Part shown: positions 19,501 through 49,631 of the stretch, in pieces
How positions within the stretch are numbered: position 1 is the first letter of the stretch
Layout of the letters: every line of letters begins with the position of its first letter
Assembly (NCBI GenBank): GCA_964583625.1
Contig: CAZOVA010000001.1
Coordinates: forward strand, 76,465-140,464
Length of the DNA: 64,000 nt
Reading direction: 5' to 3'
From: an uncultured Pseudomonadales bacterium
GTDB taxonomy: Bacteria; Patescibacteriota; Microgenomatia; UBA1400; PJMF01
Made by a program: the position numbers and the translations under genes
Notes under the pieces: model-generated
Told to the model about the DNA's origin: nothing
Database searches by the model: none
Seen by the model: only the letters and a program-made list of their open reading frames with translations

Positions 19501-19574
19501 CGGAGTGTAGCTCAGATGGCTAGAGTGCGCGCTTTGGGAGCGTGAGGTCGCAGGTTCGAATCCTGTCACTCCGA
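19501..19574 (+). tRNA. tRNA-Pro (anticodon UGG)
   Basis: Manual fold: 7-bp acceptor CGGAGTG/CACTCCG, D-arm GCTC/GAGT, anticodon stem CGCGC/GCGTG with loop TTTGGGA, 5-nt variable loop, T-arm GCAGG-TTCGAAT-CCTGT, discriminator A, no encoded CCA. Strong resemblance to E. coli tRNA-Pro 3' half. Confidence 0.85.
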
Positions 19575-19704
19575 CATTTGCCTTTTTGAAAATAGAACTT
19601 AGATTTTAGTTTTCCTCTTTTCCAGTTTAATTTTTCAATTTCGTTTAGTATTGTCGTTGATTTCTAATACTTGATGTTTTTTTCTCCACTCAACATTTTA
19701 TTCC

Positions 19705-35032: not shown

Positions 35033-38000
35033 TTATCCAAAAAGAGTGCGAACGATTTGTCGTAAATTTCTCTTTTCTTTTTTCCTGTCTTGCCAAAAAA
35101 GATAGCCGAAGCCAGCAAGGGTGCCTAGCCACAAAATCATTCCTCCATAAGCCCAAATTTGAGGCCAATAATAAATTTTAACTAGCCATTGACCTCTGTC
35201 TACAGTCCAAGCATTGGCCCAACCGTTAAAAACCTGTGGTTTTTTAACTATTTTTTCCCCAGTTTCCTGATTGATAAACTTAGCCCGCCAAAGAGGATCA
35301 TAGCTTTGATGAAAAACTAATAAGTTGTTTTCGCTCTGACCAGCAAAAGTTAATTCATAACTAGCACTATTGTTTTTATGATATGCTCCTATCTGCGCCA
35401 CACTACTCACTTTTGCCAAATTTCTCTGTTGAGCGTAGATTTTACCTAGTCTTTGAATATTGACAGGAATAAAAATGAGCTCTGTCAAAGTATTTTCACT
35501 TTTCTGTCCAAAGGAATTAGTTTCAAAATTAAAAAATAATTCTTGGTAATTTTTTTTGTTCTGACTCATGAGATTATAAGTGATATCAAAATCACCTTCT
35601 GGCAAGAGTGTTTCTAAAAATCTTTGACCATTACTATCTTGAATGACGGCCATTTTCCAACTTCTTCCAGCCAAATTTTGTCCCTTCATTCTGAGCAAAT
35701 AATCGCTTCCATTATTAAAGTTTTCTGCCCTTATAGTTAGACAAGCATTACCCATTTTTTCAGCCCGCAACCAAAGTTTAGCTTCATTTTTTGCATTAAG
35801 ATTTTCGACTTCTCCTTCCTGAGAACAATTACCAATTTCCATTTTTTGCTTCAAATCAACTGCCTGTTCAAAACTTCGGTCAATTACTAATTCTAAATTT
35901 TTATTAGCTTCTTCTAAAACAAGAGAGGTGGTTTTTTTTAATGGTTCCAAGTAATTAGGGGTAAAAGTATAAGAAAAGGCGTTTTGGTAATTAATAATAT
36001 AAGAAATTTTCTCTGTTCTTTCTTGCGCATTAATTTTTCGATCATCGACAACAGTGATTTTCTGATTTTTATTTGGTAAAAATTGAAAAACGGCCACTTT
36101 ACTTTCTCCTTGAGCTAGAAAAACCACTTCTTGATTAAATTCCACCATAACTCTTTCAGCGCCCACCGAACTAATATCAATCTCCATATTTTGCAATTGA
36201 GGAATTTCAATTTTTTGTTTTCCATTATTAATATAGGTGCGAGGATAATCTAATAATAAATTCCCTCCCTCAAAACTTAGACGAACGGGAGTAATATAAG
36301 TCTCATTGTCTGCCAAAGCGGGCAGAGTCAGAGTCATGTTTTCCTGAGTAATTTTTTCACCTTTTAGAACTACTGTTTGGTCATGCCAACGGACCAGATC
36401 TTCGTTTTGTTCGGTGGTCAAAAAGGCAAAAGGATAAGTCAAGTCAGCTGTCTTTGAGAGTAAATAATCGCCACTATTTTCATAAAGAAAGTCTCTTTGT
36501 CCAGCAATAATATTTTTATTATTAACCAGTGAATATTTATCTGCTGCTTTGAAAAGAGCAGCTTCAGGATAAAACTGATACAGACTAAGAAAATCTTTTT
36601 GCCAGATCAGTTGACCACCACTAGCGCTTAAAAAGTCCTTTATTTCTTGATATTGCGCTCCTTTACCTTCATTAATAAAAGCACTTTCATCAAGTAAAAA
36701 TAAGCTTAAATTATATTGTTGCAAAACTTGAGAAAAAAGACTTTCGTTTTCTTGATTAAGAGCCAGATTCAACTGTCGATAAACTGTTTCATTAGTATTA
36801 ACCCAACGATCAAATTCTCTATCCAATAAAGCTTGAGGTAAACCGAACCACAGCCAGCCAGCTCCTTGATAACCACTCGTTTGCCAATCATGATAGGTCC
36901 AGCCGCTATAACTGAGCATTGGCAGTTTAACGACTACTTGTTCCTGATTGAGAAAGGTCAAAAAACTATAGAGTTCGTCATATTGTTTTGGAAAAGTGAC
37001 CTTCATTTTGTCACTCATTAAATGACCTGTCAAAGCCGGTAAATGAGCTAGCAATAAAAGCGTTATCGCCAATAGATTGACGGTAGTTGTTATTGTTCTT
37101 TTAGTTTCCCATTTTTTGGTTAATAATTCTTGAATAAAAACTAAGCCATTGGCAAAAAATACTACCAAAGCGAAAAGATAAATAATAGAAAACTTGGTAA
37201 AAGGAAAACGAATAGCTTCTTTTAGCAGAGGGAGTGAGCGAATTAATTGATATAGCCACTTGAGAGGAAAATTAAGATTGATTAAGAAAAAAAGACTTCC
37301 CAGAAAAACAGCCAGCAGAGCCAATGTTTGCCAAGTTTGTTTTTTCCAAGATTTATAAATACCAGCAAAAGCAATAATGACAAAAACATATTGTAAGAAA
37401 AATAAATGCGTTTTCTGATAATAAGAATTCCATTCGTCAAAAAGTGGGACAAATTCTCCTTTTTGCCAGTCTAAATCCTTCCAGTTAAAAAGGAAGTTTT
37501 TTCCTGTCAAAACTTGAGGTAACCAACCATAAGCTTGATTATTCCAAAAAGCCTCAGGAGAAAAATTTTGACTAATTTTTGCTTTACTAACATAATGAGA
37601 ATGAAAAATACTGTAATAAAAATTTGGCAATAACCAATAGCTATTGGCGGCTAAAACTAGAAAAATAAGAATTAAGATAGCTTTGATTTTTTTACGCCAG
37701 CCACCTCTTTTAGCCCAAAGCAGGAAAAACGTGTAAAGAAAAACAAAAGGCAGATACATATAGAAAAGGGTGGCGGTATGCGCGGCCGGCGCTGCCAAAG
37801 TTAAAACCACGAAAAACCAAAAATATTCCTGCAATCTGCCTCTTTCCACCGCTTTTTGCAAAGTGAGAAAAACCCAGGGTAAAGTCGCAAAGTGGACGGC
37901 GAACATTTCTAAAGGAACATAAAATTGTTGCAGAGTAATTAAGTTTAGTAGATAAAAAACTGCCGCCGCCGCTGCTGGCCAGGTAGTAAATTTTGTCTGG

Positions 38001-38362
38001 CGTAAAAAACAGAGAGTGAGAAAATAGTAGACGCCGATTCCACCTGTCACATAACAGATGAAAAAGAAAAGATAGCGATTAAGATTATTAGGAAATATTT
38101 GTAAAAGCCAAACTATTGGCAGTCTGACGATTTCCGCCAAGTGAGCTTGAGAAGCAGGAGCACCTAAACCCTGATGCGGTTGCCAAGCCCCCCAAAAAGT
38201 CCTTTGAAAGTATTGCGTTAAATTAAGTTCTGGCTGAAGAGTATCCCAACCGCTCAAAGTGGTTCCTGGTTTGATATTAATAATAGTGACCCAAAGAGCT
38301 ACTAAAACAATCGTTAGTAAAGGAAGATAAAGTTTAATTTTGGACCACCAAGAAGAGATCAT
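35033..38362 (-). CDS. large integral membrane protein (1109 aa): N-terminal roughly 450-aa polytopic domain plus large extracytoplasmic C-terminal domain; GT-C/Emb/YfhO-like architecture (tentative)
   Basis: At least 10 predicted TM helices followed by a long beta-rich soluble region. 4-nt overlap with the upstream GT-C gene. Confidence 0.5.
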   Translation of the reverse strand: MISSWWSKIKLYLPLLTIVLVALWVTIINIKPGTTLSGWDTLQPELNLTQYFQRTFWGAWQPHQGLGAPASQAHLAEIVRLPIVWLLQIFPNNLNRYLFFFICYVTGGIGVYYFLTLCFLRQTKFTTWPAAAAAVFYLLNLITLQQFYVPLEMFAVHFATLPWVFLTLQKAVERGRLQEYFWFFVVLTLAAPAAHTATLFYMYLPFVFLYTFFLLWAKRGGWRKKIKAILILIFLVLAANSYWLLPNFYYSIFHSHYVSKAKISQNFSPEAFWNNQAYGWLPQVLTGKNFLFNWKDLDWQKGEFVPLFDEWNSYYQKTHLFFLQYVFVIIAFAGIYKSWKKQTWQTLALLAVFLGSLFFLINLNFPLKWLYQLIRSLPLLKEAIRFPFTKFSIIYLFALVVFFANGLVFIQELLTKKWETKRTITTTVNLLAITLLLLAHLPALTGHLMSDKMKVTFPKQYDELYSFLTFLNQEQVVVKLPMLSYSGWTYHDWQTSGYQGAGWLWFGLPQALLDREFDRWVNTNETVYRQLNLALNQENESLFSQVLQQYNLSLFLLDESAFINEGKGAQYQEIKDFLSASGGQLIWQKDFLSLYQFYPEAALFKAADKYSLVNNKNIIAGQRDFLYENSGDYLLSKTADLTYPFAFLTTEQNEDLVRWHDQTVVLKGEKITQENMTLTLPALADNETYITPVRLSFEGGNLLLDYPRTYINNGKQKIEIPQLQNMEIDISSVGAERVMVEFNQEVVFLAQGESKVAVFQFLPNKNQKITVVDDRKINAQERTEKISYIINYQNAFSYTFTPNYLEPLKKTTSLVLEEANKNLELVIDRSFEQAVDLKQKMEIGNCSQEGEVENLNAKNEAKLWLRAEKMGNACLTIRAENFNNGSDYLLRMKGQNLAGRSWKMAVIQDSNGQRFLETLLPEGDFDITYNLMSQNKKNYQELFFNFETNSFGQKSENTLTELIFIPVNIQRLGKIYAQQRNLAKVSSVAQIGAYHKNNSASYELTFAGQSENNLLVFHQSYDPLWRAKFINQETGEKIVKKPQVFNGWANAWTVDRGQWLVKIYYWPQIWAYGGMILWLGTLAGFGYLFWQDRKKEKRNLRQIVRTLFG

Positions 38363-39957
38363 TTTACCCTCCTCATCAGTAATAACGGTCCATCACCACT
38401 TTGGTATTCAAAAACCTTTTCAAAGCGCGCGCTTTGGAGTAAGTAACTTTGCGCGAGACCAAGATTGGCCAAAGCGCGCGAGGCAGTCACGCCAGTTACT
38501 TGTGGTGAAACAATAAAATAAGCAAAATTATCCAAGTAGCTTTGCAAAACTGCCTCATTGTTAAAGTCAAGATCTCCTGGCACAGAAATAAAGGTAAAAT
38601 TGGGGATTTTTTTCTTGACCGTCAAGTAATGGAGGGTAGAAGCAGAGAGGTGAGGTTGATCTACTTGCAAAAGGACCTGAGATTTTTTGCCTCCAGCTAG
38701 TTTGACTAAATCTTCCAAAAGGAGGTGATTGGCTGAAGCATCTGGCTGCGGATAAGCGACAACAGTGTCACCAGTATTGATAATATCAATCCAGCCCAGA
38801 GGGCCAAAATTGAAAGCTCTTTGATAAGTGGGCAATAAGTGAAAGCTCAAAATAAAATAGAAAATGATCAACCAAGACAAAGCTAAACCACCCAAGAATT
38901 TTTTCCATTTTGCCCCATTCACTATTTCTACTGCCGCCGCCATCATCAAAGGGACCAATAGTGGCAAGTCGTAACGAATGTCTTTATTTGATAACAAGCT
39001 AAAAAAGATATAAATAAAAATCAAATAGGTAGCTAGAAGTTTTTTATATTTATTTTTCTTTTGATAAAAATAACTACCATTGAGAACTAAGAGAATGACG
39101 CCAGGAATAAGTCCAACCTGGAACCCTAAAAACTCCCATAAATAAAACCGCCAATTTTCTATAGACCACAAAACTTGAGGATCATCAATTTCGCCAGTAG
39201 TAGAAATTCTTGCTTGTTCTAAAATTGACTGCCAATTAGCTAGATACCAGGGAACAATCAAAACTAAGACAATAGCTATGAGCAAGAGAACCTGCCGCCA
39301 GACCTTACTCCAAAGTTTGTTTTTATATATTTTGTAAAGAACAAAAATTGCTGGTATAAAAAGAAAGACTAGTCCTGTCCATTTAGTTAAAAACACTCCG
39401 GCAACACTCAAAGCAAGAAAAATTGTTTCTCTTTTTTTGCTTAAAAATTGACTTTGCCACAAAAAATACCAACTCCAAACAACAAAAGCAAGCAAAGGAA
39501 TGTCAAGAAGAAACCAACGGGAATTGGTATAAATTACTGGTGAAAAAAGTAAAAAGGCGGCACTTAAAAGACCGATCCAGCGATTCCCCCACAATTTATT
39601 GCTCAACTTATAAATAGCAGTGGCTGTCAATAAAAGATAGAGAGTAATTAGAATAGCTCCCACTTGAACTTCACGCCCAAAAAACCTCATGCCAATTGCC
39701 ACTTGCCAATGAATGAGGGGAGGGTAGTAACTAGATATCTGCCAAAAACTTTTTTTAACTTTTGCTGGTTGAGCCCATTTATCAACAAATTCCATGCTTA
39801 GACGAGTATGTCCAGCTTGATCCCAAGAAGGAATTTGTCGGTCTAAGCTAATCCAGATAAGATTGACTAAAAGATGCAGACTCAAAAGCAATAAAAAAAG
39901 TCTCTGTGGCCAATCCAGATTGCGCCAAAATTTTATTATCACTCTTAAATTATACAA
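38359..39957 (-). CDS. GT-C fold glycosyltransferase, ArnT/PMT-like (GT39/GT83-like)
   Basis: Polytopic membrane protein with a first-loop acidic motif (IPSWDQAGHTRLSMEF) resembling the DE motif of PMT/ArnT-family transferases. Confidence 0.5.
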   Translation of the reverse strand: MYNLRVIIKFWRNLDWPQRLFLLLLSLHLLVNLIWISLDRQIPSWDQAGHTRLSMEFVDKWAQPAKVKKSFWQISSYYPPLIHWQVAIGMRFFGREVQVGAILITLYLLLTATAIYKLSNKLWGNRWIGLLSAAFLLFSPVIYTNSRWFLLDIPLLAFVVWSWYFLWQSQFLSKKRETIFLALSVAGVFLTKWTGLVFLFIPAIFVLYKIYKNKLWSKVWRQVLLLIAIVLVLIVPWYLANWQSILEQARISTTGEIDDPQVLWSIENWRFYLWEFLGFQVGLIPGVILLVLNGSYFYQKKNKYKKLLATYLIFIYIFFSLLSNKDIRYDLPLLVPLMMAAAVEIVNGAKWKKFLGGLALSWLIIFYFILSFHLLPTYQRAFNFGPLGWIDIINTGDTVVAYPQPDASANHLLLEDLVKLAGGKKSQVLLQVDQPHLSASTLHYLTVKKKIPNFTFISVPGDLDFNNEAVLQSYLDNFAYFIVSPQVTGVTASRALANLGLAQSYLLQSARFEKVFEYQSGDGPLLLMRRVK

Positions 39958-39983: not shown

Positions 39984-40002
39984 CCCTGGACGTAGTCCAG
40001 GG
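39984..40002 (-). terminator. hairpin CCCTGGAC-gta-GTCCAGGG flanked by T/A tracts; terminator for the 555-aa gene (bidirectional geometry)
   Basis: 8-bp perfect stem. The minus-strand reading is followed by TTTTTCTTGC. Confidence 0.5.
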
Positions 40003-40024
40003 TTTGATCTTTTGATTTTATTGC

Positions 40025-41692
40025 TTAATTGTTTGGTAGACCAATGACTTCGGTGGGATTAAAAACCACCTTATTACTCTCCCGATCGAGGGTAAAAGTG
40101 CCAGCCACTTTGGTTTTAATTGAGCCGTCCTGATCATACTCAGCAAAGACAGCCGTCAAACCTTGATAGGGCTGCATATCCAAATGATGTTGACCCTCAG
40201 TCAGTTGGCGGAAAATATCACCCACCTCGGAGATTTGAGAAAGCTTTCCCTCTTGTCCAGTTATCTCAATCAATTGTCCAGCGGGGATGTTTCCCTTGCC
40301 ATTGGTAATTGTTTCTAAGTGGGCAGGGATTTTGGCAAAACTAAGAGTGTTCCACCATTTGGCGTCCTGTCTCTCTTCTGGCGTTATTAAATTACCATTA
40401 ATACTAATTGAGCCATCCCCGGAAATCTTCAAAACTTGTTCCTTGATAGAGGCGGGGATGGTGACGTCCACTCGATCAATCAACCGCAAATCATTTTCGC
40501 CTGCAACATTGGCATTGGAATAACGAAACTCTTGCTCGTCAACACTTGGATCCCAGAAAGAAGTAACGAATTTTTCAATAACTTGTCCTTGCGGGCTAGA
40601 AAATTCAATTTTACTTTGTAAATCCATCTCTGAACGACGAGGATCAATATAGTTGTTTTCGGCAGTTCCTCCAATTGGTAAAGCATCAATAAAGGTCTGC
40701 CGGGCAAGTGATTCTTCGCCGGCCATTACTTCTTGTGCCATTGAAGAGGCTTCTTGCTCTGTTGTGGGGAGCTTGTCGACACCAATAACTTCGGTGGGAT
40801 TGAAAACAATTTTTCCTTGTTCATTGGCCATAAATGTCCCTTTTACTTGCTGGGCAATCTCACCATTCTCTGCAAAAACAGTAAAAGCAGCATTAATTCC
40901 TGTATAAGGTCTTTTTTCTCCGTCTTCCAGCAAATGTTCTTGTCCTTCTTGCAGTTGAAAAGAGATATCTCTTCTTTCGGCCTCTAGTGAAGGTCTCTCA
41001 CCATTAATAAATAGTTGACCAGAAGGGCGATTACCATGACCATCGGTCATCACTTCTACTCCAGCAGGGAACACGCCGATATTAAGATTGTTCCAATAGC
41101 CACTATCTTGTTGTTGATCGGAACGGACCAAACCCTCTTGTGTGCCCAAAGAACCATCACCAGATATTTTTAAGGTTTGTTCCTGACTAGAAGCAGGAAT
41201 AAAATTAATAATTTTATCTACCAAATACTGACCCTCAGATTCTCTATTGGAAGAGAGGAAGGGGACACTTTCTGCCTGAGCATCAAATAAGGAAAGAATA
41301 AACTGTTTGACTTCTGGACCTTGTTCACCTACCACCTCAATATTATTGATAAAGTCGGCTTTGGCTTTCTCAGGATCAAGAAATTGTTTCTCCTGTGGTC
41401 CATCAGCCACTAATTCATTGAGAAAAGCTTGTCTTTGCTCTGTTTCTCCGGCGAGACCTTCTTCCAGCCAAGCTAAGTTTTCTTGCGAAGGCATAGTGCC
41501 AGCCGTTTCCAATTTTGTTTTTGTATCTGTTTTGCTATTAGGGTCGCTAGCTGCCTCAGCTTTTTGTCCACCGCCACCACTAAAAGCTAGACCAATAGCT
41601 GTTACAATGGCGGCCGCTCCCCTGGCAAGTTTCTTTTTCTCTTTTTTCTTAAACTCTTCTTCCGTCCCCGGATATCCTTGTTCTAAGGCCAT
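40025..41692 (-). CDS. secreted/anchored hypothetical protein built from two homologous roughly 235-aa repeats
   Basis: N-terminal basic + hydrophobic + AEA signal. Internal duplication visible (…KISGDGSLGTQEGLV…KIVFNPTEVIGVDKLP… versus …KISGDGSISINGNLI…KVVFNPTEVIGLPNN). Confidence 0.6.
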   Translation of the reverse strand: MALEQGYPGTEEEFKKKEKKKLARGAAAIVTAIGLAFSGGGGQKAEAASDPNSKTDTKTKLETAGTMPSQENLAWLEEGLAGETEQRQAFLNELVADGPQEKQFLDPEKAKADFINNIEVVGEQGPEVKQFILSLFDAQAESVPFLSSNRESEGQYLVDKIINFIPASSQEQTLKISGDGSLGTQEGLVRSDQQQDSGYWNNLNIGVFPAGVEVMTDGHGNRPSGQLFINGERPSLEAERRDISFQLQEGQEHLLEDGEKRPYTGINAAFTVFAENGEIAQQVKGTFMANEQGKIVFNPTEVIGVDKLPTTEQEASSMAQEVMAGEESLARQTFIDALPIGGTAENNYIDPRRSEMDLQSKIEFSSPQGQVIEKFVTSFWDPSVDEQEFRYSNANVAGENDLRLIDRVDVTIPASIKEQVLKISGDGSISINGNLITPEERQDAKWWNTLSFAKIPAHLETITNGKGNIPAGQLIEITGQEGKLSQISEVGDIFRQLTEGQHHLDMQPYQGLTAVFAEYDQDGSIKTKVAGTFTLDRESNKVVFNPTEVIGLPNN

Positions 41693-41817
41693 AAGAACTC
41701 CTTTATTTGCTAGTCGATAATAATTTCATTATATCATAAGATACTTTTAGAGAGAAAATTTGCTTTTATTTAATTAAATAATTTAGTTAAATAGTTTGAT
41801 GTTTTCTTAAAAAGAAA

Positions 41818-41863
41818 GACCCCCGTTTTAAGGCGGGGGTCAGTCGAGAGCAACGCGCTCTCA
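41818..41863 (-). terminator. two tandem stem-loops (GACCCCCG-N8-CGGGGGTC and GAGAGC-N5-GCTCTC) immediately 3' of the GC-rich gene; the first is followed on the minus strand by a T-rich tract
   Basis: Read directly; positions approximate to about 1 nt. Confidence 0.5.
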
Positions 41864-41870
41864 GAAGTAC

Positions 41871-42590
41871 TTACCTGATCGGGTTGAGGGCGACGGTGTC
41901 GCCCATCTTAACGATCACAAAGTCATAGGTGCCGTCGTTGGCCAGGATGCGCACATCCAGGCCGTCGTACGGCTTGTTCTTCAGGTGCTCCACGGGAAGG
42001 AGAACCTGGATCCCAAGATCCCGGTATTCAGCCCAAGCATAGGGCTTAACACCGGCATCGAAGAGCTGGATGCTAGGCACCCAGCCCTTGCTGAAAACGA
42101 GCATCAGCTCGCCGTCAGCCGGGATGGTCATGAAGAACAAGGTATTCCTGCTGGGGTCTCCACCTTGGAGAGTCTCACCCAGCTTCTGTCCGTTCAAGAA
42201 CACCTCAACGAACGAACCGCTGATCTTGAGGACCTGTCCCGCTTTCACGGGGGTCCTCGCCACCTTGAGACCGTTTTCCTCAACGACGGTCAAGCCGTCG
42301 TTGAGCCACACAAAGTGTGGATTTTGATTCTCAATCTGGAAATATTGCCCCCAAGTAATGCGTTCAGCATCACTCAGGTTGACAATCCAGCCAGGCCCAT
42401 CATAGGTCTGAGTAGCTTGCTGCTGGAGATCCAAGGTCGCCAACAACTGCGCCACTTGCTCAGGGGTGCCGTAGAATACGGCCCCGCTGGGTAAGGTGAC
42501 AGGCACGAGTCCCGCGCCTTCCGCGAGGACGGTATTGGCGCCCAGCGCCAGGAGGATCAGGACAACAACGAGGATCATCAGTTTTTTCAT
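41871..42590 (-). CDS. secreted hypothetical protein encoded on a high-GC (about 57%) insert. Signal peptide MKKLMILVVVLILLALGANTVLA. An alternative in-frame upstream start at 42680 also carries an SD
   Basis: Codon usage (CTG, GCC, GGC, GTC) and GC content are sharply different from flanking genes. AAGGAGGG lies 7 nt before the ATG at 42590, and AAGGAGGT 7 nt before the ATG at 42680. Confidence 0.7.
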   Translation of the reverse strand: MKKLMILVVVLILLALGANTVLAEGAGLVPVTLPSGAVFYGTPEQVAQLLATLDLQQQATQTYDGPGWIVNLSDAERITWGQYFQIENQNPHFVWLNDGLTVVEENGLKVARTPVKAGQVLKISGSFVEVFLNGQKLGETLQGGDPSRNTLFFMTIPADGELMLVFSKGWVPSIQLFDAGVKPYAWAEYRDLGIQVLLPVEHLKNKPYDGLDVRILANDGTYDFVIVKMGDTVALNPIR

Positions 42591-42730
42591 GGGGTTTCCC
42601 TCCTTCTTAGCGCCTTGAGCGCTCTTTGTGGGGTTGATCCCCACCGTGGGTTCCTTGGTGTGCACGAACAGCTTCTTCATGATTTTTACCTCCTTCGGTG
42701 GGGATCATGGACCCCGTTTAGTCAGACCTT

Positions 42731-42795
42731 GCTATCGCGAATAGCTAAGATCTGCCACTCAAAACTCAAGTCTTAAGTTCTCAGTGGCAGATCCT
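42731..42795 (-). promoter_or_regulatory. pair of palindromes upstream of the GC-rich gene: GCTATCGCGAATAGC-like and an 11-bp inverted repeat GATCTGCCACT-N23-AGTGGCAGATC
   Basis: Read directly; coordinates approximate. Located about 50-110 nt upstream of the longer start codon. Confidence 0.3.
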
Positions 42796-43063
42796 ATACT
42801 AGGTTCAAGCAAGAAATAACTACACCAAAGTGGTTTCACTATTTTGACTTTGTTATAAGTATCTTCTGTTAAAAAGCGTGTTTAAGAAATATTGCTATTT
42901 CTTTTCACTCCCGCTTCAACTCTAAGAGTTTTTCGCCTTACCAAGCGAAATGCTTGAGAGGCAAGACCTTTCTTATGTTAAAGCGAACACATTATAGCAT
43001 AAGATATCTATTTTGTCAATAGTCAATTATTATAAGTCTAATTATTGAAGAAATAAGAAAATA

Positions 43064-43549
43064 TTAGCCCACTTTTACTTTGGCCACCTGGAGCACTTGT
43101 CCATGGAGCAGGTATCCTGGAGTAATCACTTCGGTCACAACTTCATTTTCACCTGTTTTTTCTACCGCCTCCATTTTTTCTGGATCAAACTTTCCGCCCT
43201 CAAGCTCCATTTTTTGCAGACCTTGATCCTTGAGAGTTTGCCAAAATTGTTCCACTACCAAATTGAGTCCTTGGTCTTGCAAGTTTTCCGCTGCTAAACT
43301 CAGATGAGTTAAAGGCTGTAAAAGGCTAGAGAAGACCAAAACTTGTGCAGCCTTGATCAGCTGAGTTTGATCTTCTTTTTGTCGGCGAACAAGATTTTGA
43401 TAATCGGCCAAAGCTCGAGCTGTTTGCTCTTTACATGCTGCTATTTGCTTTTTGAGTTGAGAGTTCTCTTCAGCGAGATTATTTTTTTTATCAAATTTTC
43501 CTTGGAAATCATTTTTTTTAACAGAAACTCCTTTTTTATCTTGTAACAT
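43064..43549 (-). CDS. grpE: nucleotide exchange factor GrpE (short)
   Basis: Coiled-coil N-terminus (…ALADYQNLVRRQKED…) and C-terminal beta-domain (…FDPEKMEAVEK…ITPGYLLHGQVLQVAKVKV). Confidence 0.7.
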   Translation of the reverse strand: MLQDKKGVSVKKNDFQGKFDKKNNLAEENSQLKKQIAACKEQTARALADYQNLVRRQKEDQTQLIKAAQVLVFSSLLQPLTHLSLAAENLQDQGLNLVVEQFWQTLKDQGLQKMELEGGKFDPEKMEAVEKTGENEVVTEVITPGYLLHGQVLQVAKVKVG

Positions 43550-43560
43550 AAGCTATTTTT

Positions 43561-44280
43561 CTAAATCATACTTTCCATCAATTGCTTGATATAGCGCATC
43601 ATCGGGATAACATAAGGATAGTCAAAACGACTAGAACCTAAAACGCCAAACTGATATTCGTCTTCACCAAGCATCACTTTGGAAAAAATCAAGCTGATAG
43701 GCTCTAGGTCGCGATTGCCTAATTCTTGACCATAGACGACTTGGACAGAATTTTCACTATTACCGAATTTGAAGATATCCTGCAAAACAGAGACCTCTTC
43801 AATTAAAGTCAAAACTTGACGCATCAGCGTAATATCATAAAATTCTGGCATTTGTAGTAAATTGGCATAGCCAGCGTGATAAACTTTGCACCCATTAATG
43901 ACGACGAAGCCCAAGGCGTGAGTTTGTTTGGCTAAACCTCTAGCGATTGCCCAAGCTAATTCTTCATGTTCATTGCGATTGAGCCAAATTTTTTCTTTTA
44001 CACCCACCTCATCGGCTACTGTCAAATCTTTTTCCTTCATCAGTTCATTGACATAGAGCTTGAGAGCTGAGCTGGTAGGCAAGCGACCAGAGCTAGAATG
44101 GTCTTTGGACAAATAACCTTGTTTTTCTAAAAAAACCATTTCATTACGAATAGTTGCTGGAGAAACTCCGAGATTGTATTTTTTATCCAAAGTTTCTGAA
44201 CCCACCGGCTTGGCCTCACGAATAAACTCCTCAACGATTAATTTGAGAATTTGTACTTGACGGGCTGTTAATCCGATCAT
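43561..44280 (-). CDS. hrcA: heat-inducible transcription repressor HrcA
   Basis: LTARQVQILKLIVEEFIREAKPVGSETL…SPATIRNEMVFLEKQGYLSKDHSSSGRLPT matches the HrcA N-terminal wHTH region. Confidence 0.75.
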   Translation of the reverse strand: MIGLTARQVQILKLIVEEFIREAKPVGSETLDKKYNLGVSPATIRNEMVFLEKQGYLSKDHSSSGRLPTSSALKLYVNELMKEKDLTVADEVGVKEKIWLNRNEHEELAWAIARGLAKQTHALGFVVINGCKVYHAGYANLLQMPEFYDITLMRQVLTLIEEVSVLQDIFKFGNSENSVQVVYGQELGNRDLEPISLIFSKVMLGEDEYQFGVLGSSRFDYPYVIPMMRYIKQLMESMI

Positions 44281-44384
44281 AATTATCTTTCTCTCACAAT
44301 TTCAAGTAGCAATTATATAGCAAGACTGCCAGTTTGTCAATTTTAAGCCTGATTTTGATTTTTTCATTTAGTTTTTGCTCATCA

Positions 44385-44414
44385 CTTGACAAAAGAGTTT
44401 TATTAATGATAGAA
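44385..44414 (+). promoter_or_regulatory. sigma70-like promoter TTGACA-18-TAGAAT driving the pilin-like gene array
   Basis: cacTTGACAaaagagttttattaatgaTAGAATg about 60 nt upstream of the ATG at 44474. Confidence 0.5.
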
Positions 44415-44473
44415 TGCAAGACATAACTTGCAAAAGTTACATTAGTTATTAATTGAAAGAAAGGTTTCTTTAT

Positions 44474-44893
44474 ATGAAGAAAGTCTTGAATAAGATCAGC
44501 ACAGCTGCTTCTTTGGGAGTGATTGCTTTGAGCAATGCTGGTATGGCTTTTGCTCAAGGGGGAAGAGCTGGAGTTAACATGGGCACTAATACCATTTTTC
44601 AAACTGGCGGTACAGCTGTAACTTCTGACCCCACGGTTTTGATTAAAAATGTAGTTAATCTGATTTTAATTTTGGCAGGCGCCTTAGTGTTTGCCTATTT
44701 AATCTGGGGAGCGATTAAATGGATTACTTCTGGTGGTGATAAATCCAAAGTGGAAGAAGCTAGAAATAAAATTACTTCAGCTATCGTCGGTCTTTTGATT
44801 TTAGCCGCTGTTTGGGCCATCTTCAACTTGGTCCTCACCATTGCTTTCGGAGCTGGAGACATGACGATCAAGTCATTAAACACTGCCACCTAA
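44474..44893 (+). CDS. pilin-like small membrane protein 1 (signal peptide plus two-TM hairpin); TrbC/VirB2-like T4SS pilin architecture
   Basis: MKKVLNKISTAASLGVIALSNAGMAFA-QG signal. Hairpin VLIKNVVNLILILAGALVFAYLIWGAI-KWITSGGDKSKVEEARNK-ITSAIVGLLILAAVWAIFNLVLTIAFG. No G/FTLIE type IV prepilin motif. Confidence 0.55.
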   Translation: MKKVLNKISTAASLGVIALSNAGMAFAQGGRAGVNMGTNTIFQTGGTAVTSDPTVLIKNVVNLILILAGALVFAYLIWGAIKWITSGGDKSKVEEARNKITSAIVGLLILAAVWAIFNLVLTIAFGAGDMTIKSLNTAT

Positions 44894-44926
44894 TTTGCTA
44901 ATTTTTAAAATATAAAAATTCTCAAA

Positions 44927-44951
44927 CCCCTCTTAAAAAAGAGGGGTTTTT
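44927..44951 (+). terminator. rho-independent terminator CCCCTCTT-aaaa-AAGAGGGG + TTTTTG
   Basis: 8-bp stem plus U-tract directly after pilin-like gene 1. A second promoter (TTGACA-17-TACACT, about 44954-44982) follows. Confidence 0.6.
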
Positions 44952-45004
44952 GTTTGACAAAGAGCCTCTTGTTTGATACACTCATCCTCATGAACTTTAA
45001 ATTT

Positions 45005-45448
45005 ATGAAAAAATTTCACTTAAAATCACCAATGGTCTTATTTTTGTCGGTCATTTTGTTTTTTGGACAAATACAGGCGGCGAGTCCAAATCCGAGTCCA
45101 AATCCGAGTCCAAATCCTAATACTGCTTATGCAATTGACTCTTTTAAACCTCAAAATATGAATGTAGCAACTGATGCCTCTAGTTTGATTGTTAATATTG
45201 TCAATACAGTAATTATGGTGGCTGTTATTTTAGCTTTTGTTTATTTACTCTACGGAGGTTTGTCGATGATCACCTCTGAAGGTGATGCGGCCAAAAAAGC
45301 CACCGCCAGACAAAGAATGACTTGGGCAGCGATTGGATTATTGATTTTTGCTGGTTCTTGGGCAATATTCAATTTAATCACCACCGTCGCTTTTGGCGGC
45401 ACAGACGTAGAATTGCCAGTATTTACTGACGAACAAGCTAATACTTAG
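45005..45448 (+). CDS. pilin-like small membrane protein 2 (paralog), with (SPNP)3 linker
   Basis: Start at MKKFHLKSPMVLFLSVILFFGQIQA-AS. Same TM1-loop(SEGDAAK)-TM2 core. The track's upstream extension was rejected because the promoter lies inside it. Confidence 0.55.
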   Translation: MKKFHLKSPMVLFLSVILFFGQIQAASPNPSPNPSPNPNTAYAIDSFKPQNMNVATDASSLIVNIVNTVIMVAVILAFVYLLYGGLSMITSEGDAAKKATARQRMTWAAIGLLIFAGSWAIFNLITTVAFGGTDVELPVFTDEQANT

Positions 45449-45469
45449 TGTAATAAAGAAAGATACTAT

Positions 45470-46430
45470 TAAAATTATGAAAAAAGGTTTCTTAAAAATT
45501 GGTAAAAGTCTTTTACTAAGTTTTTCTCTTTTAGCTTTGGCTTTTGTTCCAGTAGCGGCTCAAACCGACGAGAAAATCAAGGTGAGCACCTTTACTCAAT
45601 CAGCTGGTGATAAAGTGCCTACTAGTTCTACTGTTTTAATCACCAATATCGTCAATACTGTCTTAATTGTGGCTGCCGCTTTAGTTTTTGCCTATTTAAT
45701 CTATGGAGCTATTAGCTGGATTACTTCAGGTGGTGATAAATCCAAAGTAGAAACAGCCAGAAATAGAATTACCTCTGCCGCTTTAGGAATTCTCATTCTT
45801 GCTTCTGTTTGGGCCATCTACAATCTAGTTTTAACAATTGCTTTTGGCGGTCAAGATTTGCAAATTAAGAATTTGAATGAAGGAGTGGCAAACAGAATAA
45901 ATCAAGGAACCAGAAAAGACGAAACGGATAAAAGAGAAAAAGAAAGAGCTATATAAACTAGCCGTAACGAGGTAAAACTTTGAAAGTAAAAAAGGTAAAG
46001 AAAGGTATTAAAATAAAATTATGAAAAAAGGTTTCTTAAAAATTGGTAAAAGTCTTTTACTAAGTTTTTCTCTTTTAGCTTTGGCTTTTGTTCCAGTAGC
46101 GGCTCAAACCGACGAGAAAATCAAGGTGAGCACCTTTACTCAATCAGCTGGTGATAAAGTGCCTACTAGTTCTACTGTTTTAATCACCAATATCGTCAAT
46201 ACTGTCTTAATTGTGGCTGCCGCTTTAGTTTTTGCCTATTTAATCTATGGAGCTATTAGCTGGATTACTTCAGGTGGTGATAAATCCAAAGTAGAAACAG
46301 CCAGAAATAGAATTACCTCTGCCGCTTTAGGAATTCTCATTCTTGCTTCTGTTTGGGCCATCTACAATCTAGTTTTAACAATTGCTTTTGGCGGTCAAGA
46401 TTTGCAAATTAAGAATTTGAATGAAGGAGT
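45470..46430 (+). repeat. 417-bp perfect tandem duplication (45470-45886 = 46014-46430, period 544 bp) spanning 7 nt of 5' UTR plus the first 137 codons of pilin-like genes 3 and 4
   Basis: Sequences identical by eye over the whole interval. They diverge exactly at the C-terminal tail. Confidence 0.8.
45477..45956 (+). CDS. pilin-like small membrane protein 3 (paralog), charged C-terminal tail
   Basis: MKKGFLKIGKSLLLSFSLLALAFVPVAA-QT signal. Conserved hairpin core. Tail …NRINQGTRKDETDKREKERAI. Confidence 0.55.
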   Translation: MKKGFLKIGKSLLLSFSLLALAFVPVAAQTDEKIKVSTFTQSAGDKVPTSSTVLITNIVNTVLIVAAALVFAYLIYGAISWITSGGDKSKVETARNRITSAALGILILASVWAIYNLVLTIAFGGQDLQIKNLNEGVANRINQGTRKDETDKREKERAI

Positions 46431-46533
46431 AGCGGAAAATGCTGCTCCCCTTGGCGGCGGCGTTGGAGGTGGCGCCCTTGGCGGCGGCGTTGGAGGTGGC
46501 GCAGGTTCTGTTGTCATGACTGCTGCTGAATAG
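46021..46533 (+). CDS. pilin-like small membrane protein 4 (paralog), Gly-rich C-terminal tail (GGGVGGGALGGGVGGGAGS) encoded by a 27-bp x2 tandem repeat
   Basis: Identical to gene 3 through residue about 137, then …ENAAPLGGGVGGGALGGGVGGGAGSVVMTAAE. Confidence 0.55.
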   Translation: MKKGFLKIGKSLLLSFSLLALAFVPVAAQTDEKIKVSTFTQSAGDKVPTSSTVLITNIVNTVLIVAAALVFAYLIYGAISWITSGGDKSKVETARNRITSAALGILILASVWAIYNLVLTIAFGGQDLQIKNLNEGVAENAAPLGGGVGGGALGGGVGGGAGSVVMTAAE

Positions 46534-46570
46534 TAATATTTAAAAAGAAAGTAAGGCTTAAAAAATAACT

Positions 46571-46597
46571 CCCTCACTTGTAAAAGTGAGGGTTTTT
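46571..46597 (+). terminator. rho-independent terminator CCCTCACTT-gtaa-AAGTGAGGG + TTTTT (end of pilin array; bidirectional with respect to recO)
   Basis: 9-bp perfect stem plus U-tract. Confidence 0.6.
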
Positions 46598-46610
46598 AGT
46601 TTGCTAATAA

Positions 46611-47147
46611 TCAAGCTCGTAAATATTCAAAACTGTGCAAAGTTCGCCCAGTCAATTCACTCACTAGAGAACTAACAGAGCACTGCATTTCTTTTTGTTG
46701 ATCCCAATAACCTAGTTCTGCCAATAAGGCTTGGAAAGACTCTTTTATTTTTTGATTGTTCATGTTTTGTAAGAGTAGTTCCCTCAAACTCAGCACTTGC
46801 TGAAAGAGATGAGGAGAAAGCTCTTCTTCAGTCAATAATAAATCAATAATCTCCAAATAAAGCAGAAAACGACGCAAACGACTTAAAGAGAAGCGAGTTT
46901 CGCCGATAGTGCCCACGAGGCAGGCTTGAGTTAAAATAGGCCAAGATTTGGTTTTAACAAGTTGCACTTGAACCAAATTGCCTGGTTCAAGATAGGGTCT
47001 TTTTTTGGAGTTTAACTTGCAAGTGCCTTTGGCAACAGTAATAATTTTTCCCAGCTCGCAAGTGAGAAGAGTGACCAATAGGTCACTCTCTCTACTTTTT
47101 TTCACTTTGATCACAATCGCTAAAAGATTGCGACTTTTATATTTCAC
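46611..47147 (-). CDS. recO: DNA repair protein RecO, truncated form lacking the C-terminal zinc-finger region
   Basis: N-terminal OB-fold pattern (LLAIVIKVKKSRESDLLVTLLTCELGKIITVAKGTCKLNSKKRPYLEPGNLVQVQL) and helical domain (RFLLYLEIIDLL…). Confidence 0.5.
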   Translation of the reverse strand: MKYKSRNLLAIVIKVKKSRESDLLVTLLTCELGKIITVAKGTCKLNSKKRPYLEPGNLVQVQLVKTKSWPILTQACLVGTIGETRFSLSRLRRFLLYLEIIDLLLTEEELSPHLFQQVLSLRELLLQNMNNQKIKESFQALLAELGYWDQQKEMQCSVSSLVSELTGRTLHSFEYLRA

Positions 47148-47152
47148 CGTTT

Positions 47153-48184
47153 TTATTCTTCGTCTTCTTGACGGGCTTTCTTCAATTTCTCATCTAATTT
47201 GTTCAGCTTTTCTTCTTCTAGATCGAGCATTTTGGCATATTTTTTACGAGTAGTAACGCTGACGATGATAATTAAAATAATTACTAATAAGATGGCTAAG
47301 ATAGTGCGAACGGGCACAATCCAAAACCGAGCTTCTACTGGTACTAGCTCTTTACCGCTGCTTGCCCCATAAATACCACTCAAGTGGGCAGTGTAGCGAC
47401 CGAAACCCCAATGAGCATTCCATTCGCCCTTCATCTCTCTTTCACTATCAGGAAAGATATTTTTTTGTTCTGGAGCTAAGGTAGCCATTTCTTTGCCAAA
47501 CATATTTTTAATGACAATTTTTGTTTCTGGACGAATATGTAAGCTAGAATTATTTTCTATTTTGTAACTATAAGCAACTGGGCCAAATTCGCTAAATTTT
47601 TTGAAAGCAAAATCTTTTATTTCAGCTTCTTCGGCGATTTCTCCATCAACTACGACATAGAGAAGTGTTCCTACTTGAGCAGTAATTTTAGCCCCAGTAG
47701 TTTCTGTTTCTCCTGTTCCCATTGCTGGTTTGTGTAAAACCATAGCATAACGTCCCCCTGGAAGAGCATCTTCTGGCACATTAATAGTGACCATTAAAGC
47801 AGCTGAGCCATAAGGCTTCAAAGCTACATTATTGGGAGTGACTGTCAGCCATTGAGCCAAGCTCCATTTACTACTCACTTCATCCTCAACAGCAATCGGC
47901 GTTTCTCCGTCTGGAGCGATAATAAAATCACGAGCAAAAGTTTCCACGGTGGCGGGATAAGCTGAAGGATTGCGAACTTCAATAGTAGTTTGAGTTTTTT
48001 GTCCTGGCTTAACCACTAAGCTGTAATCATCACCTAAGCGGGGAGGAACGGCAGTCAGAGCAATTTCTCCAGGGTTGGCCACAGGAGGAGTGTCTGTTTG
48101 GGCCCAAATTTGACTGGAGAAAAGACCTAAAAATCCCCCAACTATTAGTAGGGTGAGAGAGGAGATTTTATTAATTGATTTCAT
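47153..48184 (-). CDS. cell-surface protein with signal peptide, about 280-aa ectodomain, C-terminal TM anchor and charged tail; resembles the DUF916/CscA-type anchored surface protein architecture
   Basis: MKSINKISSLTLLIVGGFLGLFSSQIWA-QT signal. C-terminal ILAILLVIILIIIV TM plus KK/EE-rich tail. Confidence 0.55.
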   Translation of the reverse strand: MKSINKISSLTLLIVGGFLGLFSSQIWAQTDTPPVANPGEIALTAVPPRLGDDYSLVVKPGQKTQTTIEVRNPSAYPATVETFARDFIIAPDGETPIAVEDEVSSKWSLAQWLTVTPNNVALKPYGSAALMVTINVPEDALPGGRYAMVLHKPAMGTGETETTGAKITAQVGTLLYVVVDGEIAEEAEIKDFAFKKFSEFGPVAYSYKIENNSSLHIRPETKIVIKNMFGKEMATLAPEQKNIFPDSEREMKGEWNAHWGFGRYTAHLSGIYGASSGKELVPVEARFWIVPVRTILAILLVIILIIIVSVTTRKKYAKMLDLEEEKLNKLDEKLKKARQEDEE

Positions 48185-48203: not shown

Positions 48204-49631
48204 TTAAAAAGATGCTGTTACTGTATAAGTGACACTGGTATTATATTTTCCAGGAATATTTGTATTGGAAGAATTAATTTTATAACAAAGATTAACAATG
48301 TCGCCATTGGTAGAACGAAGGTTATTAATAATTTGCAAAGTAGTTTCTCCGTCAGCTTTGTCAGCAAAACTGCTCCAACCGCTAGCTCCGCCAGCAGCAT
48401 TAACACCATTGTAAGTAAAATTGGGAGTAACATTAGGAATATTACCGTTCAAGTATTTATCTCCATCTACCACTTCCATAGAGAAACCAAAGTTTCCTGT
48501 AGTCGCTGGGGCGGTCCAGGCTGTCGCAGTTCCTGGAGTACCAAAATTAGGAATACAAATATCATTACCTAAACCATTTCCTGGGCAACCATCACCATCC
48601 AAACTCATCTGGTCACTGCCAATAGCGGTCACTACATAGCCATTAGCAGCATTAGTAGTGACAGTTAGCTTTTGTGCTGCCTGGGAAAACTGAAGATTGC
48701 TAATCGAACCAAAAGGAACGAGTGATCCCGTAGTGCTAGCAGAAGTGCTAGCTCCACAAGCAGCAACACTATTACCTACACCCTCAATTTTGAAACTTAA
48801 CTGCGGAGCTACTCTGACAACCATTTTGACAGCATTAGCAAAACCGACAGCTGTTGTTTCAGTAAAAACATTTACTCCGGCCCTTTCTTGTTTTAAAGAG
48901 ATCAACATGGAATTAAAGTCACCGACAGTGTCTCCGATTTTAGCCGTCGGATTAATCAAGCCTGTAACGACGAACTCCAATTGCTGATTGGCGGAGGCGG
49001 TCGCCTCAGTGTATTGACAACTAAAAAGATGATTGGGATTGGTTGTCCCGCCTGTTCCCACTGGGGCAGAGGTGGCCGTATAACCAGCTGGGCAAGTGAT
49101 GCTGGCATTGGTATTGAAATCAAAACCATCAATATCTGGTAAACCATCATTAGCAATTGCGGCACTAGCAGTAGCTGCTGGAAAATTAATAGTCAAAATA
49201 TCATTTTGTTGGAGATTGGTAACAGTCGCTTTAATTTTGATAGGACCGCTAGCTCGATGATAAACAGGCGTACCAGCAGCAATATTAGCTGTGGCTAGCA
49301 AACCGTCAAGGGGAATTTCATTATTCTTCAAAAGAGCACTACTAGTAGCTACCTTATAAATAATATTCCCAATTAAGACACTGTCACCATTAATTAATTG
49401 TTGACTAGAAACTGAATAGATCCCCTGAGCTTCATTAGCCACTGTTTCTATCAAAGCTAAGGAAGTATAGGCAACATTACCGCTAGCTAGTTTTCCTCTA
49501 AATGAAAGTCTAGAATTACTTGGAAAAATTTCTACTTGGTTTTGAGCAGCCGCTCTTTCGGGAATAAATAAGATAAGAGAGATAAGAATAAATACGGTCA
49601 ATTTAATCGAAAAATTCTTAAATAATTTCAT
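48204..49631 (-). CDS. secreted Thr/Asn/Gly/Ala-rich beta-rich surface protein (475 aa); possible partner of the anchored protein (WxL/Csc-like arrangement, tentative)
   Basis: Signal peptide MKLFKNFSIKLTVFILISLILFIPERAAA-QN. Low-complexity T/G/N-rich body. No LPXTG motif. Confidence 0.55.
   Translation of the reverse strand: MKLFKNFSIKLTVFILISLILFIPERAAAQNQVEIFPSNSRLSFRGKLASGNVAYTSLALIETVANEAQGIYSVSSQQLINGDSVLIGNIIYKVATSSALLKNNEIPLDGLLATANIAAGTPVYHRASGPIKIKATVTNLQQNDILTINFPAATASAAIANDGLPDIDGFDFNTNASITCPAGYTATSAPVGTGGTTNPNHLFSCQYTEATASANQQLEFVVTGLINPTAKIGDTVGDFNSMLISLKQERAGVNVFTETTAVGFANAVKMVVRVAPQLSFKIEGVGNSVAACGASTSASTTGSLVPFGSISNLQFSQAAQKLTVTTNAANGYVVTAIGSDQMSLDGDGCPGNGLGNDICIPNFGTPGTATAWTAPATTGNFGFSMEVVDGDKYLNGNIPNVTPNFTYNGVNAAGGASGWSSFADKADGETTLQIINNLRSTNGDIVNLCYKINSSNTNIPGKYNTSVTYTVTASF

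Follow-up and report, generated by a model that had tools for sequence, protein, structure and literature searches.

A four-gene array of probable VirB2-like pilins in a Microgenomatia genome with a type IV secretion system near its replication origin

Our analysis favors the view that a tandem array of four genes, g1 to g4, from a Patescibacteria (candidate phyla radiation, CPR) bacterium of the class Microgenomatia encodes paralogous VirB2-like pilin subunits (PF18895) of a chromosomal, origin-proximal type IV secretion system (T4SS), a reading that we consider probable. The array occupies positions 44385-46600 of a 64,000-nucleotide stretch of contig CAZOVA010000001.1 (assembly GCA_964583625.1; positions 76,465 to 140,464, forward strand), referred to here as the window. 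Such arrays were already described between 2023 and 2025, and the one here is a typical further example and no new kind of system. Wang et al. (2023) reported essential predicted pilin subunits inside the Southlakia T4SS cluster (PMC10633639), and the six-gene pilin array of Southlakia epibionticum and its T4SS are essential in transposon sequencing (PMC10633639; PMC12857230). Quinonero-Coronel et al. (2025), using PF18895 and PF04956, found 441 VirB2 arrays of 2-11 genes in 383 Patescibacteria assemblies, with arrays especially common in Microgenomatia and Saccharimonadia (PMC12102498), and a 2025 review highlights them (PMC12857230). Published accounts of what the system does go no further than that it is essential for epibiotic growth (PMC10633639; PMC11665869; PMC12857230). 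The present locus goes slightly beyond this literature in the identity among its genes, which is well above the published maximum of 54%, in a tail swap between g3 and g4, in a conserved terminator-promoter partition, in the position of the array apart from the virB4 and VirB6-like loci, in a candidate VirB6 family, and in a similarity to proteins of Mycoplasma integrative and conjugative elements (ICEs). The interval holds four co-oriented plus-strand open reading frames (ORFs) with spacers of 28-111 nt, and the genes and predicted signals are as follows:

44386-44415, plus strand: promoter P1 for g1, TTGACA-18-TAGAAT with a TG-extended -10, matching 11 of 12 consensus positions
44474-44893, plus strand: g1, A-type VirB2-like predicted pilin of 139 amino acids (aa); PF18895 47.8 bits; ortholog L009a at 64% identity
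44924-44955, plus strand: T1 after g1, intrinsic terminator with an 11-bp GC-rich stem, loop AAAA and a T-run, from a consensus scan with its match at 44924-44949
44954-44982, plus strand: promoter P2 for g2-g3-g4, TTGACA-17-TACACT, TG-extended, directly after T1, from a consensus scan
44990-45448 (152 aa) or 45005-45448 (147 aa), plus strand: g2, B-type predicted pilin, with alternative in-frame ATGs at 44990 and 45005
45477-45956, plus strand: g3, A-type predicted pilin of 159 aa with a Lys/Glu-rich C-terminal tail; PF18895 33.0 bits
46021-46533, plus strand: g4, A-type predicted pilin of 170 aa with the g3 core and a Gly-rich repeat tail; PF18895 32.0 bits
46571-46598, both strands: T2, bidirectional terminator with a 9-bp stem and T-runs on both strands, common to the array and the convergent recO, with its scan match at 46571-46592

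All four proteins match the T4SS_pilin model PF18895 (g1 47.8, g2 32.4, g3 33.0 and g4 32.0 bits, against a gathering threshold of 26.6 bits), with model positions 4-71 of 71 covered, and 72 of 72 aligned relatives also score above the gathering value. These matches support the identity as T4SS pilins that a first-pass annotation had proposed from the letters alone, while its alternative, an undescribed family of small secreted hairpin proteins, was wrong, since both a Pfam model and published surveys exist. The PF18895-type family is very large (46,045 representatives of 50%-identity clusters at E<=1e-3), and the homologues come from Patescibacteria metagenome-assembled genomes (MAGs), including Woesebacteria, Pacebacteria, Collierbacteria and the "Microgenomates group". 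Across 80 related loci (designated here by L numbers, and individual proteins by P numbers), arrays contain 2-11 genes and tandems of 6-11 members are the norm, so the four-gene array is a small one; no further family copies were found in the window beyond g1-g4. The published definition of a Patescibacteria VirB2 array calls for two or more pilin genes, in tandem or with a single gene between them, and a VirB4 in the genome (PMC12102498); here there are four adjacent genes, and a VirB4, P0241, lies on the same contigs as the array.

The hairpin also occurs in other settings within the family. P0364, P0490 and P0362 are single chains of 264, 552 and 820 aa with one signal peptide followed by 2, 6 or 8 tandem hairpin modules; they resemble whole arrays fused and may inform subunit packing. 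Larger proteins with a pilin-like hairpin adjoin arrays in L090 (13833-17138) and L092 (4610-6173), and hairpin-bearing ORFs lie 5-8 kb upstream of arrays in L034, L039, L042, L046, L048, L052, L054, L076 and L085. One such protein has 1,101 aa with VWA and Fib_succ_major domains and others form pairs of about 400 aa and about 200 aa. These could be tip proteins or analogues of minor pilins or adhesins; neither the window nor the virB4 locus of this genome contains one.

The four paralogues share one anatomy: a signal peptide, a disordered and low-complexity linker, a two-helix hydrophobic hairpin and a variable tail of 10-45 residues. Their N-termini combine a basic, Lys-rich n-region and a hydrophobic core with AxA-type sites, identified by eye as AFA/Q, IQA/A and VAA/Q, and the Ala at position -1 is at least 90% conserved among 72 family members. 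The linker, which had been annotated as 30-60 aa, measures about 20-32 residues, and that of g2 consists of SPNP repeats. A short loop joins the two helices, SGGDKSK in g1, g3 and g4 and SEGDAAK in g2. Hydropathy segments agree with a signal peptide and two hydrophobic helices, and AlphaFold2, run on a 72-sequence alignment, modelled a signal helix at 2-25, a disordered stretch at 27-46 with predicted local distance difference test (pLDDT) scores <50, and a hairpin of helices 53-85 and 90-125 with pLDDT >90. The mature part is thus modelled as a helical hairpin, the check for which the first-pass annotation had proposed AlphaFold, and the ORFs, the model and the conservation profile together confirm its description of a signal peptide, two-helix hairpin and variable tail in all four proteins. 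Conservation, measured as the fraction of sequences with the majority residue, is highest in the loop (0.94), lower in helix 2 (0.73) and helix 1 (0.61), and lowest in the tail (0.28) and linker (0.23). No LPXTG motif and no Cys occurs in g1-g4.

This anatomy also bears on whether g1-g4 might be type IV pilins or pseudopilins, of the kind found in type IV pili (T4P) and type II secretion systems. Patescibacteria do encode essential type IV pili (PMC10633639), and g1-g4 are small, secreted and hydrophobic. However, a regular-expression search of g1-g4 found no class III signal and no G/FTLIE-type or G/[FM]xxxE site, the proteins have two hydrophobic helices and not one N-terminal helix with a globular beta domain, and no T4P Pfam family matches. 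The type IV pilin identity, which the first-pass annotation had likewise dismissed because no prepilin-peptidase motif was seen, is refuted by the sequence, and we give it practically no credence.

The VirB2-like reading is strengthened by T4SS genes on the same contig. A Pfam scan of the window ORFs found no T4SS ATPase. VirB4 (P0241, 689 aa, with DUF87, AAA_10 and P-loop_TraG matches) is encoded outside the window, next to dnaA; 5,069 bp separate its end from window position 1, and its distance from g1 is 49.5 kb. Both distances follow from the alignment of window position 1 with L096 position 17139, the T4SS core module occupying L096 1-13661. VirB4 and the array share two Logan contigs, SRR27449283_2913 (101,449 bp) and SRR36594267_81. 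Leftward from the window the gene order starts with a VanW-like gene and the genes for proteins of 1146 aa, of 284 aa (N-terminally anchored) and of 322 aa (secreted, with M23-like HxxxD and HxH motifs identified by eye); next come a PrgI/VirB3-like protein (442 aa, two transmembrane (TM) segments, 35% identical to the L092 PrgI-like protein), a TraC-like protein, VirB4, dnaA and dnaN. The gene dnaA is about 3.5 kb before the window start, and the core module adjoins dnaA-dnaN, a placement that matches the frequent adjacency of Patescibacteria T4SS genes to dnaA (PMC12102498). VirB4 is 65-87% identical across many Patescibacteria, whose VirB4 proteins are related to the MPF_FATA class (PMC12102498). 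The first-pass annotation had envisaged a dispersed T4SS and had named in advance the lack of a T4SS ATPase as the outcome that would tell against it; VirB4 P0241 and the TraC-like and PrgI/VirB3-like genes are all present on this contig. In L092 and L093, pilin genes, a VirB6-like gene, a PrgI-like gene, a TraC-like gene and VirB4 form one cluster, and pilin genes are co-located with VirB4 clusters in L092 and L032.

A further candidate component of the same T4SS lies within the window:

12009-14087, minus strand: VirB6-like polytopic membrane protein of 692 aa, candidate channel subunit of the same T4SS

This protein combines a signal or anchor segment, some 140 extracellular residues, about six hydrophobic helices and a basic tail at its C-terminus. 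It has no Pfam match even at E=5 and no sequence relative in the PDB by profile search, and its 335 homologues all lack precomputed Pfam domains, those with a named source coming from Patescibacteria MAGs. Its AlphaFold2 model is good in the membrane core, with pLDDT 80-93. The family (homologues P0121-P0240) is large and extends across the Patescibacteria, and for its putative VirB6 fold the best structural match is VirB6 (TrwI). At 31 of 80 loci a homologue is encoded no more than 10 kb from the pilin array, most often 5-7 kb downstream; in L093 the homologue follows a six-gene pilin array, and in L092 it shares a cluster with pilin-like, PrgI-like, TraC-like and VirB4 genes. This linkage to pilin arrays and, in L092, to VirB4 backs the earlier guess that a VirB6/TrbL-like protein is encoded at 12-14 kb. 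In this genome, 17 kb separate the gene from virB4 and about 30 kb separate it from the array. A 2025 survey found recognisable VirB6 to be scarce in Microgenomatia, for which it suggested extreme divergence, and reported none in Gracilibacteria (PMC12102498); the 12009-14087 family is a good candidate for the VirB6 that is scarce in Microgenomatia.

Convergent with the VirB6-like gene is a plus-strand gene (8364-11903) for a highly charged, cytoplasmic 1179-aa protein that matches no family. L092 and L093 have large convergent genes (748 and 1272 aa, respectively) at the equivalent position, and BLAST found no relative of the 1179-aa protein in those two T4SS clusters.

The location of the array raises the question of whether its link to a T4SS is coincidental. 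The array lies between hrcA-grpE and recO with no T4SS gene within 30 kb, and the proteins give weak, sub-threshold matches to many unrelated membrane families, a sign of strong composition bias; g1-g4 could on these grounds be T4SS-independent small secreted membrane proteins that are holin-like, bacteriocin-immunity-like, involved in membrane stress, or effectors that insert into host membranes. We regard such an origin as very improbable. A holin or bacteriocin-immunity family was the outcome against which the first-pass annotation had asked its reading to be judged, and g1-g4 match no holin or phage family (no PHROG match) and no bacteriocin or immunity family at threshold. Moreover, related arrays show specific co-location, with a VirB6-like gene at 31 of the 80 loci and, in L092 and L032, with VirB4 clusters; a pilin gene is near virB4 in 1,135 of 1,948 assemblies (PMC12102498), and the Southlakia array inside its T4SS cluster is essential (PMC10633639).

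How far g1-g4 can be tied to the classical pilins is a separate matter. With the VirB2, TrbC and TraA subunits of the T-pilus, RP4 and the F-pilus they share a long leader, a hydrophobic two-helix hairpin, a short charged loop, small size and, as we would predict for g1-g4, cleavage of the leader, termini that both face outward, and reliance on a machine of the VirB4 type. They differ in having no significant sequence similarity to these proteins, in their monoderm host, in the lack of any sign of cyclisation or acetylation functions, in being multiple paralogues, and in their longer variable N- and C-terminal extensions. PF04956, the TrbC/VirB2 model to which the first-pass annotation had looked for confirmation, did not show direct homology: with a gathering threshold of 27.9 bits, it matches only g2, at 15.5 bits (E=0.02), and 4 of 72 relatives at E<=0.1. 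An hhalign comparison of the family with eight MPF_T VirB2/TrbC proteins, aligned from annotated plasmid genes, gave a probability of 37.6% over 13 columns, compared with 2.3% for the unrelated membrane family A3 used as a control; the 13 columns correspond to TDPxxLIxNI, where helix 1 begins, and the matching stretch of VirB2 is equivalently placed. A PDB profile search with the pilin alignment returned no pilin or T4SS match, tblastn of g2 against 72,556 plasmids returned no match, and fold searches with the bare hairpin were non-discriminating. Sub-threshold Pfam matches to TrbC and CagC were set aside, as composition-driven matches to unrelated membrane families are commoner (WLS-like_TM, for example, in 58 of 72). 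Sequence homology to classical VirB2/TrbC is not demonstrable here.

This result, with the PF04956, hhalign, PDB and plasmid searches behind it, weighs against the VirB2-like pilin reading, and so do several other observations. To our knowledge, no filament of PF18895 proteins has been seen in any organism, and the label "pilin" rests on architecture and gene neighborhood. VirB4 is not within 10 kb of the array in 78 of 80 related loci, and here it is about 50 kb away. Neither a coupling protein nor a relaxase turned up in the window or in about 17 kb leftward on the contig, the rest of the genome not having been searched. Finally, the family includes members with 6-8 hairpins fused in a single chain, which is unusual for a pilus subunit.

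Some of these points would suit a different role within the same machine, in which g1-g4 are T4SS-associated membrane hairpins without an extracellular pilus, serving as part of a channel or stalk that spans the membrane or cell wall, or as VirB3-like anchors. Gram-positive-type T4SSs, the kin of the Patescibacteria VirB4, normally lack pili (PMC12102498; PMC10633639), no pilus has been observed, and the poly-hairpin chains of 6-8 modules fit such a part. The small two-TM proteins of the related Mycoplasma ICEs, moreover, are described as VirB3-like (PMC12857230). We nonetheless think this unlikely, though it deserves more weight than any other alternative considered here. A cleavable Sec signal peptide with both termini outside, as predicted for g1-g4, is the topology of VirB2, and VirB3 has no signal peptide; a separate PrgI/VirB3-like gene already adjoins virB4; and multi-copy arrays with fast-evolving exposed ends suit a surface polymer better than a channel part of fixed stoichiometry.

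The Mycoplasma proteins merit closer comparison. NF045849, the Mbov_0395 family of pilin-like conjugal transfer proteins from Mycoplasma ICEs, has a curated cutoff of 40 bits; g1 (28.5), g2 (36.8, E 2.3e-9), g3 (22.8) and g4 (22.7) all fall under it, g2 only just. Of the 72 relatives, 69 give a match at E<=1e-3, the best one at 2.2e-9, and no other NCBIfam match is specific. Judged by these scores, g1-g4 are related to the NF045849 family but not members of it. The similarity to Mbov_0395 and MMCAP2_0565, which is significant though below cutoff and extends over the whole 80-residue hairpin model, links the hairpin, at the level of sequence, to a real conjugative system of wall-less monoderms, a T4SS of the MPF_FATA type. 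In contrast to g1-g4, the mycoplasma proteins are encoded by single-copy ICE genes and belong to a DNA-transfer system, and reviews call them VirB3-like and not pilins.

If g1-g4 are VirB2-like pilins, we envision the following scenario. Sec would export each precursor, and signal peptidase I would cut after the AxA site. The mature hairpin would then reside in the membrane with its N-terminal linker and C-terminal tail outside and the loop SGGDKSKVEEARNK in the cytoplasm; we place the loop inside because it is net-positive (K90, K92, R97 and K99 in g1), in agreement with the positive-inside rule. A machine composed of VirB4 and the PrgI(VirB3)-like, TraC-like and VirB6-like proteins would extract the subunits and polymerise them into a surface filament or conduit used in host-cell contact. 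The structures of the F- and T-pili are established, and by analogy with them one would expect the conserved loop on the lumen side and the variable ends on the exposed surface, an arrangement that would explain why only the ends diverge. Within such a polymer, g2-g4 could act as alternative subunits that change its surface properties.

The regulatory signals suggest how the subunits might be divided. The promoter, the internal terminator with a second promoter, and the terminal terminator that the first-pass annotation described are all present, and the two transcription units that they imply find comparative support in relatives. Such sites are more frequent than in shuffled sequence, with 14 promoter-like sites compared with 5.9 +/- 2.6 and 7 terminator-like sites compared with 2.3 +/- 1.7. 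A P1-like -35 TTGACA and an extended -10 lie at the same place 5' of the first pilin gene in L009, L010 and L011. Between genes 1 and 2, a terminator followed by a promoter is likewise found in L009, L010 and L013, where the stems differ yet still pair and the TTGACA immediately 3' of the terminator is kept, so that the regulatory layout is found across four lineages with diverged surrounding sequence. Because the promoter and the terminator-promoter junction recur in relatives, g1 very probably constitutes a transcription unit separate from g2-g3-g4. A Shine-Dalgarno-like AAAGG precedes g1; with the -10 of P2 ending 7 nt short of the ATG at 44990, g2 may have a leaderless transcript. With its own strong promoter, ribosome-binding site and terminator, g1 is probably the major subunit, and g2-g4 would be alternative or minor ones.

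The third and fourth genes record a very recent event that was absent from the first-pass annotation. The 417 nt at 45470-45886 and 46014-46430, from 7 nt upstream of the ATG to codon 137, are 100% identical, and beyond codon 137 the tails are unrelated, reading NRINQGTRKDETDKREKERAI in g3 and a Gly-rich ENAAPLGGGVGGGALGGGVGGGAGSVVMTAAE in g4, the latter encoded by two identical 27-nt direct repeats (46448-46474 and 46475-46501). An assembly artefact was considered and rejected: the hrcA-g1-g2-g3-g4-recO layout is present in two independent ENA assemblies (L005 and L006), and Logan short-read contigs end exactly at the start of the g3/g4 repeat. The near-exact duplication is real. The g3 protein is identical to P0006, which is present in NCBI and ENA assemblies. 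Pairwise identities are 42% for g1-g2, 57% for g1-g3 and 99% for g3-g4, and among the GTDB species representatives, which do not include this genome, the best pilin match is 64%.

A neighbor-joining tree separates an A type (g1, g3, g4, L009a and L010a/b) from a B type (g2, L009b and L010c). The split runs across relatives, and the A-then-B pair is therefore older than these species, with the extra A copies having arisen independently. In L091 (GCA_030539095.1), a close relative with an EF-Tu that is 90% identical, just one pilin gene occupies the equivalent place, upstream of recO, a WxLIP-like gene, a 475-aa gene and tuf; pilin genes also adjoin recO in L009, L010 and L024. On this comparison the pilin locus is conserved and its copy number is not, and the array probably grows by local duplication and tail replacement, as in g3/g4.

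Compared with the VirB2-like arrays of the Patescibacteria Southlakia epibionticum ML1, with its six-gene essential array in a T4SS cluster, and Nanosynbacter lyticus TM7x, with its Sec-secreted array, the array described here has the same PF18895 family, the same signal peptide and hairpin, and the same tandem, co-oriented, chromosomal organisation in a genome with a Patescibacteria-clade VirB4 beside dnaA. It differs in being small (four genes) and young, with identities of 42-57% (99% for g3/g4), where the published mean is 25% and the highest published value 54%; in its position between hrcA-grpE and recO and not within the T4SS cluster, virB4 being about 50 kb and the VirB6-like gene about 30 kb away; and in its split into two transcription units. 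The tandem virB2 genes of Bartonella, Anaplasma and Ehrlichia show a similar local amplification and diversification of pilin genes, for which the proposed role is variation of the exposed surface in the service of host range or immune evasion (PMC12102498), but those are PF04956 pilins of diderm intracellular pathogens with no sequence relation to g1-g4.

The surroundings of the array are mainly housekeeping genes, with hrcA and grpE upstream and recO (RecO_N at 46611-47147, minus strand, convergent with the array), tuf, fusA and ribosomal protein genes downstream; grpE is not followed by dnaK in the window. Minus-strand ORFs that overlap the pilin genes (44294-44602, 44695-44889, 45250-45402 and 46395-46577) were taken to be shadows of the coding strand, and Rfam and ARAGORN found a sole RNA element, a tRNA-Pro at 19501-19575. 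Beside grpE-hrcA are genes for unknown secreted proteins (40025-41692 and 41871-42680, both minus strand), the 555-aa one internally duplicated, and G+C in the window at 40000-44000 is 0.43-0.44 compared with 0.35-0.39 nearby. Past RecO_N are minus-strand genes for a secreted, C-terminally anchored protein with weak WxLIP_PGBD similarity (47153-48184) and for a secreted 475-aa protein (48204-49631), and this adjoining pair is kept beside recO in L091 (66% and 52% identity). At 54856-56625 (plus strand) is a secreted 589-aa protein of about nine tandem repeats of about 45 aa (GGxDAxxVKYDSxGNQQWVKNFGG), with only faint Pfam matches (RicinB_lectin_2 and DUF5669). The minus-strand region 35033-39957 holds a gene resembling PMT-family protein mannosyltransferases (38359-39957) that adjoins one for a 1109-aa polytopic protein; it is pure speculation that secreted proteins rich in Ser, Thr and Pro could be glycosylated by this pair, for instance in the SPNP-repeat linker of g2. 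A 999-aa single-TM protein at 205-3204 (plus strand) has no direct Pfam match and shares 24% identity across 470 aa with a DUF4012 protein from the Woesebacteria contig L089.

Taken together, these observations lead us to a broader interpretation, which we offer tentatively and consider somewhat less likely than not. The Microgenomatia-type T4SS may consist of two separable modules, an ATPase module by dnaA (PrgI-like, TraC-like and VirB4) and a module of pilin array and VirB6-like protein, in which case the Pfam-less family of 12009-14087 would be the VirB6 reported as scarce in Microgenomatia and as absent in Gracilibacteria. Because the hairpin is similar to Mycoplasma ICE proteins, this interpretation would also suggest that the pilin came with a monoderm, MPF_FATA-type system and was not borrowed from diderm T4SSs. 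If it is true, g3 and g4, with the same core and swapped tails, one of them made of 27-nt repeats, show the exposed ends of a pilin being diversified by duplication and tail replacement.

Few machines have been shown to be essential for the epibiotic life of a cultivated Patescibacterium, and the T4SS with its pilin array is among them. The locus described here is a clean and compact example. It has one probable major subunit with a promoter and a terminator to itself, an A/B pair that is ancestral, a duplicate of very recent origin whose exposed tail is the only difference, and all core T4SS genes on one origin-proximal contig. It also offers a candidate for the VirB6 component, which profile searches had found to be scarce in this class. 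These features could guide which subunit to seek in filaments and which ends to test for host specificity.

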